Notes under the pieces: generated by a model
The model's input: the letters and a program-made list of their open reading frames with translations, nothing else
Database searches by the model: none
What the model was told of the DNA's origin: nothing
Position numbers and translations under genes: made by a program
Part shown: positions 1 through 37,143 of the stretch, in pieces
Layout of the letters: every line of letters starts with the position of its first letter
Position numbering within the stretch: the first letter of the stretch is position 1
DNA from: Symbiobacterium sp.
Lineage (GTDB): Bacteria; Bacillota; Sulfobacillia; UBA995; UBA9673
Reading direction: 5' to 3'
Assembly (NCBI GenBank): GCA_020725405.1
Contig: DYFB01000077.1
Coordinates: 1-62,211, forward strand
Length of the DNA stretch: 62,211 bases

Positions 1-132
1 CAGGCCCAGGGCCTCATCAGCTTGCACGCCACATACCGCACACTTCGTCAACCTTGCTGAACCGCCGGATGCGGACCCGCATGTCCGGTGGTGTGGGAGG
101 ACGGGGAGCGAGACGCTCCCCTCCTACCCGAT
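1..132 (+). mobile_element. 3' end of class C (IIC) group II intron: end of the RT ORF plus domains V and VI
   Basis: Frame 1 reads QAQGLISLHATYRTLRQPC-stop (1-60), like intron-encoded RT/maturase C-termini. Short domain V AACCGCCGGATGCGGACCCGCATGTCCGGTGGT has the CGC triad. Domain VI hairpin has a bulged A at 126 and ends ACCCGAT at 132. Confidence 0.93.
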
Positions 133-14291: not shown

Positions 14292-15272
14292 ATGGCGCGG
14301 GTCTTCTCGGGCGTCCAGCCCTCCGGCGATCTCACCATAGGCAACTACCTCGGGGCGCTGCGGCACTTCGTGGTCCTGCAGCACGAGCACGAGTGCTACT
14401 TCTGCGTCGTGGACCTCCACGCCCTGACCCTTCCCCAGGACCCCGGGGAGCTGAGGGCGAGGACCGAGAAGGTCGCCGCGCTCCTCTTGGCCTGCGGTCT
14501 CGACCCGGCTAGGGTGACCCTCTTCGTCCAGTCCCATGTCCCCGCCCACGCCGAGCTCTGTTGGCTGTTCTTCGGCCTCACCTACCTGGGCGAGCTCTCG
14601 CGGATGACCCAGTTCAAGGACAAGGCGCGAAACCGGAAGACAGTCACCACCGGGCTCCTGAACTACCCGGTCCTGATGGCCGCTGACATCCTCCTCTACC
14701 AGGCCGGTCTGGTCCCCGTGGGCGACGACCAGAAGCAGCATCTCGAGCTGGCGCGGGACATCGCGGTGAGGTTCAACAACCGCTTCGGGGAGACGTTCGT
14801 CGTTCCCGAGCCGATGATCGCCAAGGTCGGGGCGCGCATCATGTCTCTCGACGACCCGACGAGGAAGATGTCCAAGAGCGAGACGCCTGACAGCTACGTG
14901 GCCCTCCTCGACCCGCCCGAGGTCGTGGCGGCCAAGCTGGCCAGGGCGGTCACGGACTCGGGGCGCGAAATCCGCTACAGGCCGAAGGAGAAGCCCGGCA
15001 TCTCCAACCTTCTCACCATCTACGCTCTCTCGGCCGGGAAGACGGTCAGGGAGGCCGAGGCCGAGTTCGACGGTCTGGGGTACGCCGACTTCAAGAAGGC
15101 CGTGGCCGAGGCTGTCGTTGAGACCCTCCGGCCCATCCAGGCCCGCTACCGGGAGCTGATAGGGTCGGCCGAGCTGCGGGACATCCTTCGCGAAGGAAGC
15201 CGGCGCGCGGCTGATGTCGCCGCCGTGACCCTCCGGACCGTCCAGGAGAAAATGGGTATCCTTCTTCCCTGA
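14292..15272 (+). CDS. trpS: tryptophan--tRNA ligase
   Basis: FSGVQPSG..TIGNY, YPVLMAADIL, VPVGDDQKQH and KMSKS motifs. Confidence 0.97.
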   Translation: MARVFSGVQPSGDLTIGNYLGALRHFVVLQHEHECYFCVVDLHALTLPQDPGELRARTEKVAALLLACGLDPARVTLFVQSHVPAHAELCWLFFGLTYLGELSRMTQFKDKARNRKTVTTGLLNYPVLMAADILLYQAGLVPVGDDQKQHLELARDIAVRFNNRFGETFVVPEPMIAKVGARIMSLDDPTRKMSKSETPDSYVALLDPPEVVAAKLARAVTDSGREIRYRPKEKPGISNLLTIYALSAGKTVREAEAEFDGLGYADFKKAVAEAVVETLRPIQARYRELIGSAELRDILREGSRRAADVAAVTLRTVQEKMGILLP

Positions 15273-23109: not shown

Positions 23110-24744
23110 GTGTCCGGTTCCTTCCGCTCGGGCGCAAGGCGGAGTCGCTTCCGGTTCGGAGTACGCTGCCAGCTGGTCGGGCTGGTCCTCCTCATCCTCC
23201 TTTCCCTCCTATCGGCTGTGAACATGACCGAGCCGTACGAGGCCTACCCTGGCAGGGAACCCGAGACCGGCCGTGGGCGCTACGAGCTTGTCGGGGCGGC
23301 CTTCACCGACGCCTCCGCCCGTGGCATCCGGACCGGGGCCCGGGTCGCCGATACCCCTGACCTCCTCATCATGCTTCTTGTCAGCGGGGTATCGCTGGCC
23401 ATGGCCCACACCGTCGGAAACCGCCTGGCCCGTCGCCTGGCCGCCCTCCAGGAGCGGGCCGCCGCTATCGCCGGTCCGTACGGCGGCCCGGACGCGAACC
23501 CGGCGGACGATGCCGGCGGTGACGAGCTCGAGGAGGCGGCCCGGGCGCTAGATCGCATGGCCGCGCGGATAGAGGCGGTGGAGAAGGAGCTCCTGGCAAG
23601 CAACCGGAAGTTTCGGGCTCTCGTCGAGAGCGTCCCCCTACCCGTTGTCGCCGCGGACGCCGAGGGCAACGTCACCCTCTGGAACCGGGCGGCTGAGCGG
23701 GTCTTCGGCTGGACGGAGGCCGAAGTCCTCGGCCGGCAGAGCCCGGCCGTACCCGACGAGGAAGGCGACGAGGCCATGGCCCTGTGGGCGAGGGTCCTCG
23801 CCGGCGAGTCCCTCTCCGGCCTCATCGTCCGCCGCCGCCGCCGCGACGGCTCGCCCATAGATATCAGCCTGTCGCTCGCCCCCTGGGGGGACGGGACGCA
23901 GGGCGGCCTCGGCGTCTTCCTCGACATAACCGAGCGCCTGCGCTTCCTGCAGGTCGCCGCGCACATGCTCCGGAACCCCATGGCCGGCGTGAGCGGGCTC
24001 GTCTCCCTTCTCGAACGCCGGGTGGCCGCGGGTCAGCCGGTCGGCGACCTGGTCCCCCTCCTCCGGCGGGACACGGAGAGGCTGGCCGCGCTCCTCTCGG
24101 CTATCCTCGAGGCCTTCCGGGTCCAGGAGGGACAGATCGGACCCGAGCTCGAGCGGGTCGATCTTACCGGCACCGTGCTCAGCGCGCTCGACTCCCTGCG
24201 TGTGGCCGGGGTCGCCGAACGCATCCGGTTGGAAGGCCTCTGCTGTGACGGCCCCTGCTGGATATGGGGGGACCCCGAGCCTCTCCGGGACATGGTGCGG
24301 ACCCTGGTGACGAACGCACTGACCTATTCCCCCGACGACGAGCCGGTGGTGCTCAGTCTCTCCTGCTCGAACGGGCTGGCGACTCTCTCGGTCGCCGACA
24401 GGGGGGCGGGCATCCCACCGTCCGAACTCGACCGGGTCTTCGAGCCCTTCTACCGCTCCCGGGAGCTCGTAGGCTCGGAAAAGGGCGGGCTGGGCCTGGG
24501 CCTCTACGTCTGCCGGGAGATAGTTAGGGCCCACGGGGGCCGGATATGGGTGGCGAGCGCGGAGGGCCGGGGAGCCGTCTTCCGGGTGGAGCTGCCCGTC
24601 TGCCAGGGCGAGGATCCGGGCGGCGGGGCCGAGAGAAGCGAGAGGAGGACGGGAGCGGCTGACGAGAAGAGGATAACGGGGGAGGAGCAACCGACGCGGG
24701 CGAAAGAGAGAGCGGAAGGGGAAGACGAAGGAGCCGATGGCTAG
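23110..24744 (+). CDS. membrane sensor histidine kinase (TM-HAMP-PAS-HisKA-HATPase)
   Basis: Two TMs, HAMP-like DEL..A.ALDRM, PAS WNRAAERVFGW..DITE, H-box AHMLRNP, and N, G1, F, G2 boxes. Confidence 0.92.
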   Translation: MSGSFRSGARRSRFRFGVRCQLVGLVLLILLSLLSAVNMTEPYEAYPGREPETGRGRYELVGAAFTDASARGIRTGARVADTPDLLIMLLVSGVSLAMAHTVGNRLARRLAALQERAAAIAGPYGGPDANPADDAGGDELEEAARALDRMAARIEAVEKELLASNRKFRALVESVPLPVVAADAEGNVTLWNRAAERVFGWTEAEVLGRQSPAVPDEEGDEAMALWARVLAGESLSGLIVRRRRRDGSPIDISLSLAPWGDGTQGGLGVFLDITERLRFLQVAAHMLRNPMAGVSGLVSLLERRVAAGQPVGDLVPLLRRDTERLAALLSAILEAFRVQEGQIGPELERVDLTGTVLSALDSLRVAGVAERIRLEGLCCDGPCWIWGDPEPLRDMVRTLVTNALTYSPDDEPVVLSLSCSNGLATLSVADRGAGIPPSELDRVFEPFYRSRELVGSEKGGLGLGLYVCREIVRAHGGRIWVASAEGRGAVFRVELPVCQGEDPGGGAERSERRTGAADEKRITGEEQPTRAKERAEGEDEGADG

Positions 24745-25105
24745 AGTGCTGGTCATCGAGGACGAGGCGACCATCGCCCTCATCCTGTCGGAGGTCCTCA
24801 GGGAACAGGGACACGAGGCCGTGACCGTGTCGGGTGGGGCGGCTGGATTAGACTGGCTCCGAGAGTCGCCACCTCCTGACGTGGTCCTTCTCGACCTTTT
24901 CATGCCCGGCCTGGGCGGCCGCGACGTGCTGAAGGCAATGCGGAGTGACCCCCGCCTGAAGGACGTCCCGGTGGTCCTGGTCACCGGGGCCGTCCCCTCG
25001 GTGGAGGACTTCCCGCCGAACGGTACTTATCAGGCCTTGATAACCAAACCGTTCGATCTCAGCGACATCACCGAAACCATAGACGCCTGCCTCAGGCGGC
25101 GGTAA
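24737..25105 (+). CDS. single-domain response regulator (receiver only)
   Basis: VLVIEDE, LLDLFMPG, VTG and KPF motifs. Confidence 0.93.
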   Translation: MARVLVIEDEATIALILSEVLREQGHEAVTVSGGAAGLDWLRESPPPDVVLLDLFMPGLGGRDVLKAMRSDPRLKDVPVVLVTGAVPSVEDFPPNGTYQALITKPFDLSDITETIDACLRRR

Positions 25106-25124
25106 CCCCGGGCGCCGACCCTGG

Positions 25125-25529
25125 TCAAGCTCTCAGACGCCCGAGCGGCGTCGGCCGCGATGGGAGGCGACCGGGCAGGAGATGCCGGGAGGTCTTGGGC
25201 GGGTAGGGGGTCCCCGAGAGCCCCGTCCGCACGACCGCCTCCTTGGTCAGCGCGATTTCCGACCTCCTCGTGGTCACCCGGATGGCCGGGTCGGCGTAGT
25301 CGACGAGGTAGGCCGGGATGAGAGAGCAGCCTAGGGCCCGCACGGCTTCGGCCCGGTGGTGGCCGTCGAGGATGACCAGGGTATGCCGGTCGACGACAAT
25401 CGGCTCCCTGAGCTCGCCGTCCTCCGCTATCTCCGCCGTGAGCGCGGCGAGGTGCTCCGGGATGACCTCCTCGTGCCGGGCCAGAGCCTGCACCTCGAGC
25501 AGGCCGAAGACGAGGGTGAGCCTCCTCAT
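25125..25529 (-). CDS. ParB/Srx-fold protein resembling SerK/SbnI free-serine kinases (134 aa)
   Basis: HEE, PIVVD...[11 protein letters not shown] and C-terminal TKE.V...G..YPPKTSRH motifs. ATG 25529 overlaps the trpB2 stop (ATGA). Confidence 0.8.
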
Positions 25530-26986
25530 CTCCCTTGACCTCCCCCCGCGGCCCGGCCCGCGATGCCCGGCACCGGGGGCAGCTCCCGGAGGGCCTGGTC
25601 TATCCTCTCCTGGGGGTGCTCGTGGTCCACGAGGCGGCCGGCGAGGTAGGCCTCGTAGGCGGCGAGGTCGAAGTGACCGTGGCCGCTCAGGTTGAAGAGG
25701 ATGACCCGGCTCTCTCCGGAGACCGCGCATTCGCGGGCGATGTCCACGGCCGCCCGCACGGCGTGGGCCGACTCGGGGGCCGGGAGGATGCCTTCGGTCC
25801 GGGTGAAGAGAACGGCCGCCTCGAACGCGGCCAGCTGCGGCACGGCGCGAGCCTCGACGAACCCTTCCCGGCAGAGGGCGCTGATGAGCGGCGCGGCCCC
25901 GTGGTACCGGAGACCGCCGGCGTGGATGCCCTCAGGGACGAAGCCGTGGCCGAGGGTGTACATCATGGCCACCGGGGCCACTCCGGCCGTATCCCCGTAG
26001 TCGTAGGCGAACCGGCCCCGGGTCAGGGTCGGACAGGCCGTCGGCTCGACGGCGATGAACCGCGTCCCGGACAAGGGCCGGGCCGCGCCCTGGGCCGAGT
26101 CGCCGGCCGCCTTCCGGGCCGCGCCCAGGTCTTCCCGGAGGAAGGGCAGGGCGAGGCCGCCGAAGTTGCTCCCCCCGCCGTGGCAGCCGATGACGAAGTC
26201 CGGCCGCTCGCCGGCGAGGTCCATCTGCCTCAAAGCCTCCTCGCCGATAACCGTCTGGTGGAGGAGGACGTGGTTGAGGACGCTCCCCAGGGCGTAGTGC
26301 GTATCAGACCGGGATACAGCGTCCTCGACGGCCTCGCTGATGGCGATTCCGAGGCTGCCCGTCGAGGCCGGGTCCCGGGTCAGGACGGCCCGGCCGGCCG
26401 CCGTGCGGTCGCTCGGGCTCGCCACGACTTCGGCGCCGTAGGTCTCCATGAGGGAGCGACGGTAGGGCTTCTGGTCGTAGCTCACCCGGACCATGTAGAC
26501 GCTGCACTCCAAGCCGAAGATGGCCGAGGCCAGGGAGAGGGCCGACCCCCACTGACCGGCCCCCGTCTCGGTCGCCAGGCGGCGGACGCCCTCCTTCCTG
26601 TTGTAGAAGGCCTGGGCGACGGCCGTATTGGGCTTGTGGCTGCCAGCCGGACTCACCCCCTCGTTCTTGTAGTAGATGCGGGCCGGGGTCCCCAGGGCCC
26701 GCTCGAGGTTCCTCGCCCGGACGAGGGGCGTCGGCCTCCAGAGGCGGAGAACGTCGAGGACCTCTCCGGGGATATCGATGTAGCGGGAGGTTGCGACCTC
26801 CTGCTCGATGAGGGCCATCGGGAACAGGGGGGCGAGATCCTCCGGTCCTAGCGGCTTCAGGGTCGCCGGGTGGAGAGGAGGCGCCAGCTCGAACGGCAGG
26901 TCGGCCAGAGCGTTGTACCAGGCTGTCGGCATCTCCCTCTCGGTGAGGATGAACTTACGGTCCTTCTCGCTTCCTTGGTCGCGCAT
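25526..26986 (-). CDS. trpB2: TrpB2-type (stand-alone) tryptophan synthase beta
   Basis: [63 protein letters not shown] and LSGHG motifs. Confidence 0.95.
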
Positions 26987-27075
26987 TGCCTTCCTCTCCC
27001 TTCTGCTTTCTGTGTCGCCTCTCTCGTGAACCGCCGGTGGTCCCCGCGGCCGAGCCGGTCTCCGGCGCCGAGCCC

Positions 27076-27109
27076 AAAAGAAAAGCTCCCGTCCCTTGGG
27101 GACGGGAGC
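27076..27109 (-). terminator. intrinsic terminator of the T-box leader
   Basis: GCTCCCGTCCC-CAA-GGGACGGGAGC followed by TTTTCTTTT on the minus strand. Confidence 0.9.
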
Positions 27110-27461
27110 CTCAGCTTCCGCGGTGCCACCCCGCTTAGACGACCCGCCGCCGGGAGGGGCGGGGACGCCTCGCTCGTTCTCGGGTACGGACCGGACGGCG
27201 CTCCCGGGCACCGGCGGAGCCCGGGTCGGCCGCGACCGCTCTTATACCCTATCCCTGGTAACGGAGGGCGACCGGCAGGGTCTACTCGGGAGGGCGGGGC
27301 CGGGTCTCCGGCCGGGTCCGGCCTTCGACGGCCGGGCGGTCCGCCCTATCCCTTTCGGCCTGCGGCTCACGGGTCCATTCAGCGCGCCTCCGGCGCCGGG
27401 CTCCCACCGTCCCCGGCTCGCTGGGGCCTTGCGGCTCTCGCCTACTAGTCCCGGTCATAGC
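27076..27461 (-). promoter_or_regulatory. Trp-specific T-box riboswitch
   Basis: Stem I with AGTA, AGCGAG and GGTGGGA motifs; specifier GAA-TGG (UGG at 27377-27375); T-box AAGCGGGGTGGCACCGCG (27136-27119); downstream terminator. Confidence 0.92.
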
Positions 27462-27481
27462 CCCTCGGTGCTGTTGCGAAA

Positions 27482-27511
27482 AGGGTAGCACCTAGCGCGT
27501 GTAGGTGTCAA
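27482..27511 (-). promoter_or_regulatory. SigA promoter for the T-box-trpB2 operon (TTGACA-N18-TACCCT, TG-extended)
   Basis: Lies about 20 nt upstream of T-box stem I. Confidence 0.6.
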
Positions 27512-27920
27512 CCAAATATTGCTCACGGACACCTGGATGGCTCCTCGCCAGCTGTTCCAGGGCGCGAAAACACGATCTGAGACCCGGGGACCTTTGTGCG
27601 GCGGCTACCATCTTCGAATCGTGGTTGAACGTGAGGCAGTACCGCCACGAACCGTCGTCTAGCTCGACCCTGGCGTCGATAATGACGTCGGACATGGCTC
27701 GGGCGGCCAGGCTGCGAACCCTACCGACCCCTCCCCTGAGTCGAAGCGCCTCCTGAAGGCCCCGGCCGGGAACAGCAAGGTCCCTCATGAACCGGAACAC
27801 GTCTAGGAAGTTCGATTTGCCCGAGGCGTTGGGCCCGATGAGGAACACGCGGTCTGGGAGGGTAACCTCAACTGATGTGAAGTTCCGCCAGTTACGGAGG
27901 AGCAGGTGCGAGAAGCCCAT
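27492..27920 (-). pseudogene. truncated AAA_21/ABC-type ATPase remnant
   Basis: L.NWRNF and Walker A IGPNASGKSNFLD, but no signature or Walker B motif; lower GC. Confidence 0.8.
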
Positions 27921-27999
27921 ACCAGCACCCCCGCAGCGGCGAGAGAAGGAACCACCCTCATTCCAGCGCGGGCCCATTAAGAACCAAGCGGACCAGGGG

Positions 28000-35934: not shown

Positions 35935-37143
35935 CTACCCCGCGGCTCCGGCGGCCGCGGCGTACACGGCCTCGGCGGCGGCGAGGGCGGCGCCCGGCTC
36001 GACCCTCCGGCCCTGCCGGTTGAGGGCGGCCTCCAGGGCGGCGAGGACCAGGAGGACGTTCTCCCGCCGTGACGAGTGGCCGAGGAGACCGATGCGCCAG
36101 ATCCTGCCCCGGGTCGGACCGAGTCCTCCCCCTATCTCCACGTTGGCTCGGGCCAGGAGCTCGCGCCGGACTGTGAGGTCATCCACCCCCTCGGGGACCT
36201 TAACCGAGAGGAGCATCGGGATACGGTAGCCCTCCCGGGCGAACGGCTCGAGGCCCATGGCCGCGACTCCAGCCAGGAGGGCCCGGCCGTTCAGGCGGTG
36301 CCGGGCGAAGCGAGCCTCCAGCCCCTCCTCGAGAACGAGGCGGAGGGCCTCGTAGAGGGCGTAGATCATGTTGACCGGGGCGGTGTGGTGGTAGAAGCGC
36401 TCGGCGCCCCAGTAGGAGATGACCATGGGGAGGTCGAGGTACCAGCTCCGGACCTTGGTCTTCCGCCCGAGGAGGACCTCGACGGCCCGGTCCCCGGCTG
36501 TAAGGGGCGCGAGACCCGGCGGGCAGGAGAGGCACTTCTGGGCCCCGCTGTAGACGACGTCGAGCCCCCACTCGTCGACCTTGACCTCTGTCCCGCCGAG
36601 GCTGGTCACGGCGTCGACGATGAAGAGGGCTTCGTGCTCCCGGCAAAGGCGAGCCAGAGGTTCGAGCGGCTGGAGGACGCCGGTCGACGTCTCGGCGTGG
36701 ACCGCGGCCACGGCCCGCACCCCCGGGTTGGCCGCCAGGGCCCGGGCGACGTCGTCGGGGTCCAGGGGCTCCCCCCAAGGGGCCTCGATCCGGACCGGGC
36801 GCCCGCCGGCCCGCTCGACGATGTCGGCCATCCTCTCCCCGAAGAGCCCGTTCACCCCCACGATGACCGTGTCGCCTGGCTCGATGAAGTTCACCAGGGC
36901 GGCCTCCATCCCGGCGCTCCCCGTGCCGGAGACAGCCATGGCCAGGCGGTTCCGGGTCTCGAAGACCCGGCGGAGAAGGGCGGCGGTACCGTTCATCACC
37001 TCGAGGAAGGCCGGGTCGAGGTGCCCGACGCAGGGGAGGGAGAGGGCCCGGAGCACCCGGGGGTGGACGTTGCTCGGTCCCGGACCGAGGAGGGTCCGCT
37101 GGGGCAGGTCGAGTCCGGGGACCGGTTCGCCCGCAGTGGTCAC
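35935..37143 (-). CDS. alanine-glyoxylate/serine-pyruvate aminotransferase (class V)
   Basis: LLGPGPSNV, GTGSAGMEA, HAETSTG, VDAVTSLGG, SGAQKCL and YHHT motifs. Confidence 0.93.
   Translation of the reverse strand: MTTAGEPVPGLDLPQRTLLGPGPSNVHPRVLRALSLPCVGHLDPAFLEVMNGTAALLRRVFETRNRLAMAVSGTGSAGMEAALVNFIEPGDTVIVGVNGLFGERMADIVERAGGRPVRIEAPWGEPLDPDDVARALAANPGVRAVAAVHAETSTGVLQPLEPLARLCREHEALFIVDAVTSLGGTEVKVDEWGLDVVYSGAQKCLSCPPGLAPLTAGDRAVEVLLGRKTKVRSWYLDLPMVISYWGAERFYHHTAPVNMIYALYEALRLVLEEGLEARFARHRLNGRALLAGVAAMGLEPFAREGYRIPMLLSVKVPEGVDDLTVRRELLARANVEIGGGLGPTRGRIWRIGLLGHSSRRENVLLVLAALEAALNRQGRRVEPGAALAAAEAVYAAAAGAAG

Follow-up and report, generated by a model that had tools for sequence, protein, structure and literature searches.

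A Trp T-box operon pairs TrpB2 with a minimal SerK-like protein and may supply O-phosphoserine for indole salvage

The contig DYFB01000077.1 of a Symbiobacterium sp. genome (GCA_020725405.1), analyzed here as a window of 62,211 nucleotides (nt), carries on its reverse strand an operon that is preceded by a T-box leader with a tryptophan specifier codon. Its first gene, trpB2, encodes a tryptophan synthase beta protein of the TrpB2 class and its second gene a SerK-like protein of 134 amino acids (aa), subsequently designated mini-SerK. We think it likely that this operon serves a tRNA-Trp-sensing indole salvage, in which an on-demand serine kinase would feed O-phosphoserine to TrpB2. This reading builds on the observed anatomy of the locus, the homology and fold of mini-SerK, conserved linkage, natural fusions and gene content. 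The strongest support is that mini-SerK associates independently, through gene adjacency as well as fusion, with the two classes of pyridoxal phosphate (PLP) enzymes reported to use O-phosphoserine. Added support comes from the host, which shows no other route to O-phosphoserine or tryptophan.

The operon and its leader

The following elements make up the operon, listed in the direction of transcription.

27482..27511 (-): promoter-like site, with a -35 element TTGACA at 27511-27506, an 18-nt spacer, TG at 27490-27489 and a -10-like TACCCT at 27487-27482
27365..27461 (-): T-box stem I with specifier loop GAA-UGG-A (RF00230 model positions 7-103, 42.4 bits, E 6.6e-8)
27137..27364 (-): long G+C-rich leader linker in place of stems II/IIA-B/III, with no Rfam model positions aligned
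27098..27136 (-): T-box sequence and 5' part of the antiterminator, GGGUGGCACCGCG (RF00230 positions 183-216, 17.2 bits, E 0.2)
27072..27112 (-): intrinsic terminator of the leader, a hairpin at 27112-27082 with a 14-bp stem (9 G-C), followed by the U run UUUUCUUUU
25526..26986 (-): trpB2, 486 aa, TrpB-like PLP enzyme of the TrpB2 class, over the cut-offs of NF009057 and TIGR01415
25125..25529 (-): gene of mini-SerK, 134 aa, ParB/Srx fold, with SerK NF053625 as best NCBIfam match; its ATG overlaps the trpB2 TGA as ATGA

The start codon of trpB2 is the ATG at 26986. The encoded protein scores 702.9 bits with NF009057 (cut-off 366) and 626.2 bits with TIGR01415 (cut-off 518.85), and stays at 151.2 bits with the canonical trpB model TIGR00263, which demands 392.45 bits. 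In the PDB, 6hul, 4qys and 6hte, all of them structures of tryptophan synthase beta, match it best (E 6.5e-127 to 1.9e-113), canonical TrpB1 structures giving E 1e-42 or weaker. Characterized TrpB2 enzymes prefer O-phospho-L-serine (Busch et al. 2014, as cited in the accessible part of PMC11917138). A preliminary description of the locus had named the gene trpB2 and had noted a 134-aa open reading frame (ORF) overlapping its stop codon; the curated models bear out the former, and the latter is found at 25529-25125 with the ATGA overlap.

The T-box was missed by the default Rfam gathering scan of the window and was found in E-value mode; its stem I match was recovered also in a whole-genome RF00230 scan. 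Two partial matches of 42.4 and 17.2 bits were obtained, which do not reach the gathering score of 93 bits and lie about 230 nt apart, separated by the unaligned, G+C-rich linker. The RF00230 alignment presents the specifier loop as GAA-UGG-A and thereby identifies the specifier codon as UGG (Trp), located at 27377-27375 (-). The T-box bulge UGGC at 27128-27125 (-) is complementary to the GCCA 3' end of tRNA-Trp, including the discriminator G. Indeed, the only tRNA-Trp of the genome has the anticodon CCA and the 3' end G-CCA. Thus, stem I with its specifier loop, a bulge fitting the tRNA discriminator and an overlapping terminator are all present. The minimum free energy fold of 27160-27070 includes the 14-bp terminator hairpin. 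RNAfold returned no canonical bulged helix for the antiterminator region, in which pairing was judged by eye from motif and position. RF00230 has 10 matches in the host genome, one of them over threshold. We regard the T-box assignment as firm because of the UGG specifier loop, the match of UGGC to G-CCA, the terminator and the presence of other T-boxes in the genome. In addition, the motif GGUGGCACC of the T-box sequence is found upstream of trpB2 in relatives as well. Hence, the T-box with UGG specifier that had been proposed for this leader is upheld. The SigA-type promoter proposed alongside it fares less well: a TTGACA -35 element is present, but the -10 element agrees with the consensus at 3 of 6 positions only, the TG and -10-like part reading TGcTACCCT, and a consensus promoter scan of 24900-27800 returned 0 sites. 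Therefore, the site is to be seen as a weak candidate of the extended -10 type.

Mini-SerK and its relation to SerK and SbnI

Mini-SerK contains the motifs HEE, DGHHR and PPKTSRH, and neither a helix-turn-helix (HTH) nor a dimerization domain was detected in its 134 residues, in agreement with the motifs and the missing HTH reported for this ORF before. Among the NCBIfam models, SerK NF053625 ranks first (E 2.9e-17) and SbnI second (E 2.6e-8). In the case of SbnI, the match to NF033589 amounts to 33.5 bits at a cut-off of 350 and covers the N-terminal domain only of this protein of ~254 aa. ParB models give E values of 0.016-0.09, and Pfam ParB_N remains sub-threshold (E 0.032). Accordingly, the scores fall short of membership in the ParB/Spo0J/Noc group, with 14.7 bits for PF02195 (cut-off 26.3) and 15 bits for TIGR00180 (cut-off 58.45). 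Sulfiredoxins (Srx) possess a catalytic cysteine in a G-C-H-R motif. The corresponding motif of mini-SerK is D-G-H-H-R and lacks a Cys, which places the protein outside this family. With DUF1015, similarity was faint and restricted to the surroundings of DGHHR (E 0.21).

A profile built from 58 family members aligned with SerK structures at E 1e-25, in two segments that comprise residues 14-116 and 204-241 of the 242 residues of SerK. The same profile matched SbnI at E 8e-13 and ParB/Noc at only 2e-3 to 7e-3. In SbnI, the C-terminal PKT(S/T)RH segment remained unaligned with the profile (second stretch -1.8 bits). Comparison of the single mini-SerK sequence to PDB sequences also produced an alignment to SerK in two pieces. 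The C-terminal TKE...PKT(T/S)RH segment is kept, residues 93-120 of mini-SerK corresponding to 202-229 of SerK and profile positions 100-137 to 204-241 of SerK. This two-segment alignment indicates that mini-SerK is a SerK with an internal deletion of approximately residues 117-203, rather than a bare N-terminal domain. The preliminary description had given the protein about half the length of SerK and SbnI and an apparent lack of their second domain. Of this, the absence of ~87 SerK residues holds true, but the retained C-terminal PKT(S/T)RH segment makes it a case of internal deletion.

His19-Glu20 of mini-SerK align with His29-Glu30 of SerK, and Glu30 marks the very column at which E30A and E30Q, two deposited variants of SerK, deviate. 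Residues D55, G56, H57, H58, R59, Y78, K96 and H116 are invariant in the 58 family members, and at least 90% of them share H19, E20, P110 and K112. The AlphaFold2 (AF2) model of mini-SerK is a compact single domain with a predicted local distance difference test score (pLDDT) of 97.1 and a predicted TM-score (pTM) of 0.89. The top 9 Foldseek matches of this model are all SerK or SbnI structures. TM-scores relative to the query (TMq) are 0.83-0.86 for SerK, with a root-mean-square deviation of 2.3 Å to 5x0b, and 0.70-0.78 for SbnI. ParB, Noc and Srx structures reach 0.37-0.48, the Srx structures alone 0.37-0.46. Profile and structure comparison, which had been proposed as a check, thus places mini-SerK nearest to SerK (E 2.9e-17; TMq 0.83-0.86), then SbnI, and far from ParB. 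Judged from sequence and modelled fold, mini-SerK is most likely a minimal member of the SerK/SbnI lineage of free serine kinases.

The family is not confined to this host. A word-index search retrieved 59 mini-SerK relatives of 90-179 aa, and an exhaustive search of representatives retrieved 300 clusters at E <= 1e-30 and 1828 at E <= 1e-10. Public annotation and Pfam name the family ParB N-terminal domain.

Partners of mini-SerK and routes to O-phosphoserine in the host

A neighborhood scan using one genome per species yielded 96 stretches encoding the family, of which 80 loci were kept. Neighboring genes were grouped by blastp clustering with one annotated member per cluster (c1, TrpB2; c2, CysK/M-like; c3, TrpRS; c10, SufS). 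In 38 of the 80 loci, trpB2 and the mini-SerK gene are direct neighbors on one strand, with trpB2 located upstream in 31 and downstream in 7 cases; the encoded TrpB2 is 51-75% identical to TrpB2 of the window. The linked loci bear the labels Bacillota, Caldisericota, Ignavibacteriales, several phyla of the candidate phyla radiation (CPR), Gammaproteobacteria (labels of metagenome-assembled genomes, MAGs), Micrarchaeota, Diapherotrites and Bathyarchaeia. A survey of trpB2 neighborhoods had been suggested at the outset, and it reveals a linkage that is conserved in two gene orders and several phyla. One locus of a Moraniibacteria MAG (L049, 1704-4375) has the order trpB-like gene (product 32% identical to TrpB2 of the window), trpA (PF00290, 231.9 bits) and mini-SerK gene; hence, the linkage is not strictly limited to stand-alone TrpB2. 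In 6 linked loci with CPR or Gammaproteobacteria labels, a same-strand gene follows that clusters with TrpRS, the one annotated member scoring 258.9 bits with TIGR00233.

Distribution of the TrpB linkage was also considered on a maximum-likelihood tree of 54 family members, 27 of 81 rows having been dropped because the small gene was missed or mis-called by the ORF caller. The linkage requires 8 changes on this tree, a number as low as this occurred in 0 of 500 label shuffles, and well-supported branches force at least 3 of the changes. Therefore, the linkage does not represent a single inherited block; the tree is only a rough guide, given the shortness of the protein and the length of several branches. 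In 18 of the 38 linked loci, the 650 nt upstream contain the GGUGGCACC motif together with a GAAUGG(A/G) specifier; 2 of the 38 come without upstream sequence. A full T-box over the gathering score precedes trpB2 in three of the 20 loci scanned (L003, L008 and L015). In a further locus from a Clostridia MAG (L009, 4302-4709, minus strand), a cluster of five tRNA genes lies directly downstream of the mini-SerK gene.

A second class of PLP enzymes emerges from the 42 loci without TrpB2. In 11 of them, which are archaeal, a CysK/M-like PLP enzyme (390 aa) is encoded within 3 kb of the mini-SerK gene. One examined member of this cluster matches CysO (1wkv) of Aeropyrum pernix best (E 5.7e-76). We take A. 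pernix CysO to be the O-phosphoserine sulfhydrylase cited by Makino et al. Moreover, both partners occur within one polypeptide: P0109 joins a mini-SerK domain to a cysKM domain (395.7 bits, over cut-off), and P0064 joins two mini-SerK-like domains to a CysO-like enzyme. No fusion to TrpB2 was detected among the best 150 representatives, and a word-index search for longer or fused relatives retrieved none, which is weak evidence. SufS-like genes cluster in 5 loci. A third partner class was considered for Thermoplasmata-type loci and rejected, the neighbors being without family or unrelated (aspartate carbamoyltransferase, topoisomerase VI).

Further multi-domain proteins were encountered in this family. 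P0060 (649 aa) and P0063 (610 aa) carry tandem mini-SerK domains with low-complexity sequence between them and no other recognized domain. In P0138 (297 aa), a mini-SerK domain is fused to a hexapeptide-repeat/gamma-carbonic-anhydrase-like domain and in P0194 (396 aa) to a sugar-1-phosphate nucleotidylyltransferase. The latter two fusions have no obvious fit with a role in O-phosphoserine supply.

The host genome (2.23 Mb in 97 contigs, 95.35% complete, 0.2% contamination) was inspected for other routes to both compounds. No trpA was found in the window or elsewhere in this genome, and besides TrpB2 of the window there is no trpB over cut-off. The gene for indole-3-glycerol phosphate synthase, trpC, was not found in the genome, and trpD is represented by a 47.9-bit partial match only. 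Likewise, serC (TIGR01364) and DUF1015 were not found in the genome, and phosphoglycerate dehydrogenase (PGDH) is limited to a 19.6-bit match of the ACT type. Because trpA, trpC, trpD, canonical trpB, serC, PGDH and DUF1015 were not found, mini-SerK would be the single apparent source of O-phosphoserine, and no route to tryptophan other than the operon is apparent. The absence of trpA and other trp biosynthesis genes, initially noted for the window, thus extends to the 95.35%-complete genome, the trpD-like partial match aside. The window does contain trpS at 14295-15260 (+), ~10 kb from the operon (TIGR00233, 354.9 bits), and the whole-genome scan detected no T-box in front of it. Among the 38 linked genomes, which are MAGs of unstated completeness, trpA exceeds its cut-off in 8.

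The immediate surroundings of the operon comprise two further elements.

25084..25098 (-): weak terminator-like hairpin with a 6-bp stem and a poor U tail, 27 nt past the mini-SerK stop codon
24737-25105 (+): convergent, receiver-only response regulator gene (PF00072, 61.5 bits)

The hairpin sits within the 3' end of the response regulator gene. Since this convergent gene ends at 25105, the operon is composed of two genes. The start of the response regulator gene is overlapped by a long ORF beginning at 23110 (+), by look a PAS-containing sensor histidine kinase, and the two genes, at 23110-25105, run convergently towards the 3' end of the operon. Directly upstream of the promoter-like site, a 161-aa ORF at 27492-27977 (-) corresponds only to the N-terminal P-loop part of an AAA_21/AAA_15-type ATPase; the gene may be truncated or mis-called. 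Positions 60-132 (+), where the window begins, match domain V/VI of a group II intron (RF00029, 48.5 bits, over the gathering score). DNA nearly identical to 25125-27511 occurs in sequencing runs of groundwater, subsurface and rock metagenomes, seven of which, from four studies, contain at least half of the sampled words of this region. All runs listed are metagenome DNA, with no RNA runs among them.

Proposed function, alternatives and known systems

According to the standard T-box model, uncharged tRNA-Trp would pair with the UGG specifier through its anticodon and with the UGGC bulge through its GCCA end. This would favor the antiterminator over the terminator and thus allow transcription of trpB2 and the translationally coupled mini-SerK gene. 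Mini-SerK would phosphorylate L-serine using a nucleotide donor, i.e. ATP, ADP or another nucleoside triphosphate (NTP), with the conserved Glu20 presumably acting as base by analogy to Glu30 of SerK. Finally, TrpB2 would condense O-phospho-L-serine with scavenged indole to tryptophan. The preliminary description had arrived at such an on-demand supply of phosphoserine to TrpB2, and all of its suggested checks that lend themselves to computation support it. We lean, by a narrow measure, towards a broader proposal, namely that mini-SerK proteins of ~125-160 residues constitute an unrecognized family and a portable O-phosphoserine-on-demand module for fold-type-II PLP enzymes. Combined with TrpB2, in many cases controlled by a Trp T-box and in some accompanied by trpS, the module would be a self-sufficient two-gene path that converts indole, serine and NTP to tryptophan in bacteria, CPR and DPANN lacking both the trp and the phosphorylated serine pathway. 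Together with CysO-type enzymes, sometimes in fused form, it would serve cysteine synthesis. Members of the family would then possibly be the smallest amino-acid kinases.

Several points weigh against an on-demand supply of O-phosphoserine to TrpB2 by mini-SerK. First, mini-SerK reaches 62.7 bits with SerK NF053625, for which the cut-off is 380, with model positions 18-100 and the C-terminal segment aligned, and it departs from the two-domain architecture of SerK (~240 aa) by ~87 missing residues of the second domain. Phosphorylation of free L-serine by the short family is a prediction from homology and fold. The nucleotide donor is uncertain because a SerK-like archaeal protein was found to bind CTP instead of ATP, as stated in the accessible part of PMC12704722. 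A preference for O-phosphoserine has been shown for other TrpB2 enzymes and may hold for the present one. Second, 30 of the 80 loci have neither TrpB/TrpA nor a CysO-like enzyme as neighbor, and among 201 genomes sampled from the phylum of the host, 2 have the mini-SerK gene and 83 have TrpB2; hence, mini-SerK is not a general partner of TrpB2. Third, there are hints at other sources of O-phosphoserine. The host has two weak partial matches to 2-Hacid_dh_C (35.8 and 31.3 bits) and four class-V aminotransferases, three of which are cysteine desulfurases. One class-V aminotransferase, of the AGXT/PhnW/BhcA type and encoded at 35935-37143 (-), scores ~217-219 bits with several models, none over cut-off, and could be a non-canonical SerC or a serine-glyoxylate aminotransferase. 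In the 38 linked genomes, serC exceeds its cut-off in none and PGDH in 1, but weak SerC-like matches are found in 14 and some 2-hydroxyacid dehydrogenase homologue in 30; therefore, these relatives may have an alternative source of O-phosphoserine. Finally, 51 of the 83 TrpB2 genomes lack a TIGR01364-type SerC and 32 have one. Both mini-SerK-bearing genomes belong to the 51, and absence of canonical SerC thus does not separate them from other TrpB2 genomes.

Mini-SerK could also be an incomplete kinase that is active only as a subunit, TrpB2 or the CysO-like enzyme closing its active site or channeling O-phosphoserine. This is a variant of the salvage reading and not its opposite. The absence of ~87 SerK residues, the translational coupling of both genes by ATGA, the natural CysK/M-type fusions and the retention of adjacency in both gene orders would all fit such a dependence. 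However, mini-SerK is modelled with very high confidence as one compact domain (pLDDT 97.1), a PLP-enzyme neighbor is missing from 30 of the 80 loci, and neither the best 150 representatives nor a search for longer proteins revealed a fusion to TrpB2. The predicted complex of TrpB2 and mini-SerK, with a score of 0.00 and a mark of 0.32, speaks neither for nor against binding. Overall, we consider an obligate subunit unlikely, with some residual weight.

A still smaller share of our belief goes to another substrate or direction: mini-SerK might act on a different hydroxy-amino acid or metabolite, or might, like DUF1015 'SerBK' in its proposed role, remove the phosphate of O-phosphoserine via ADP/AMP, with TrpB2 using free serine. 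DUF1015 proteins, which are distant fold relatives of SbnI, can replace SerB genetically according to the accessible part of PMC13759103, and some plain TrpB enzymes accept serine only, as given in the accessible part of PMC11917138. The fusions P0138 and P0194 to unrelated domains would also be compatible with a different substrate. However, the recurring partners TrpB2 and CysO-like enzyme are PLP classes reported to use O-phosphoserine, the host genome offers no source of O-phosphoserine for an enzyme working in phosphatase direction, and the catalytic Glu and the PKT(S/T)RH segment are common specifically to SerK.

That mini-SerK is a ParB/Srx-type nucleotide-binding switch, a nuclease or a sulfiredoxin-like repair protein that neighbors trpB2 by chance appears very improbable in view of the poor ParB scores (E 0.016-0.09), the missing HTH and dimerization domain, TMq values of 0.37-0.48 to ParB/Srx versus 0.83-0.86 to SerK, a DGHHR motif without the cysteine that is catalytic in Srx, and an association with trpB2 that spans phyla (38 of 80 loci) under a Trp T-box, which is unlike a chance neighbor. 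In its favor are the ParB N-terminal domain label in public annotation and Pfam, a size near that of Srx, and a Pyrococcus SerK homologue once reported as nuclease (accessible part of PMC5120207).

If the salvage reading is correct, it bears on a common enzyme. TrpB2 is widespread (83 of 201 sampled genomes of the phylum) and is reported to prefer O-phosphoserine, and the papers found describe no dedicated source of its substrate. The pairing of TrpB2 with mini-SerK under control of tRNA-Trp provides a testable answer to where TrpB2 obtains O-phosphoserine, and a portable module, if true, would settle the source of this unusual substrate. The pairing would further define a minimal scaffold for a kinase, which has ~130 residues and goes back to the ParB/Srx fold, and at least 300 sequence clusters would be freed of the routine mis-annotation "ParB N-terminal domain protein". 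For uncultured bacteria of the subsurface, CPR and DPANN, auxotrophy for tryptophan and cysteine as well as cross-feeding of indole could be predicted better.

No paper linking TrpB2 to a serine kinase or to a ParB-like neighbor was found in the searchable literature, subscription papers and supplements lying outside the search, and the accessible parts of the GapMind 2026 paper and of a ParB-fold survey do not mention TrpB. Within the same bounds, the earlier statement that a bacterial operon of this form is not known to have been described is sustained. Members of the short family may be included in Supplementary Fig. 13 of Makino et al. and in the PMC12704722 datasets.

Among known systems, SerK of Thermococcus kodakarensis (TK0378, an ADP-dependent free serine kinase, PDB 5x0b) is the closest in sequence, profile and fold. 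Both proteins have the His-Glu pair, DGHHR, the TKE segment and PKT(T/S)RH in common. SerK supplies O-phosphoserine to a PLP-dependent beta-replacement enzyme, in this case for cysteine synthesis in T. kodakarensis, and Makino et al. found no clear-cut SerK homologues outside four archaeal genera, both as far as the accessible part of PMC5120207 goes. In contrast, mini-SerK has 134 instead of 242 aa, lacks residues ~117-203, and is bacterial, T-box regulated and paired with TrpB2. SbnI, the free serine kinase of Staphylococcus for staphyloferrin B (PDB 5uje, 5ujd, 6nr6), is likewise a bacterial O-phospho-L-serine synthase with ParB/Srx fold, and its N-terminal domain aligns with the family profile (E 8e-13; TMq 0.70-0.78). 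However, SbnI is longer (~254 aa), has an additional domain and also acts in regulation, and it feeds SbnA rather than TrpB2. DUF1015 'SerBK', a distant fold relative of SbnI proposed in the accessible part of PMC13759103 to interconvert serine and O-phosphoserine, differs by its size of ~400 aa, its family, its linkage to serA/serC and its absence from the matches in the host genome. The A. pernix CysO pathway (1wkv) follows the same logic of a kinase and an O-phosphoserine-using PLP enzyme, which recurs with mini-SerK as adjacency in 11 archaeal loci and as fusions; its partner and its product, cysteine, are different, and this arrangement is absent from the window. TrpB2 itself, the O-phosphoserine-dependent tryptophan synthase beta of indole salvage, is represented by the first gene of the operon, which passes both curated models, whereas the literature found reports no dedicated serine kinase with the described enzymes. 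Taken together, the conserved module of TrpB2 and mini-SerK fails the cut-offs and the architecture of SerK and SbnI, but would work like these kinases in feeding a PLP enzyme.

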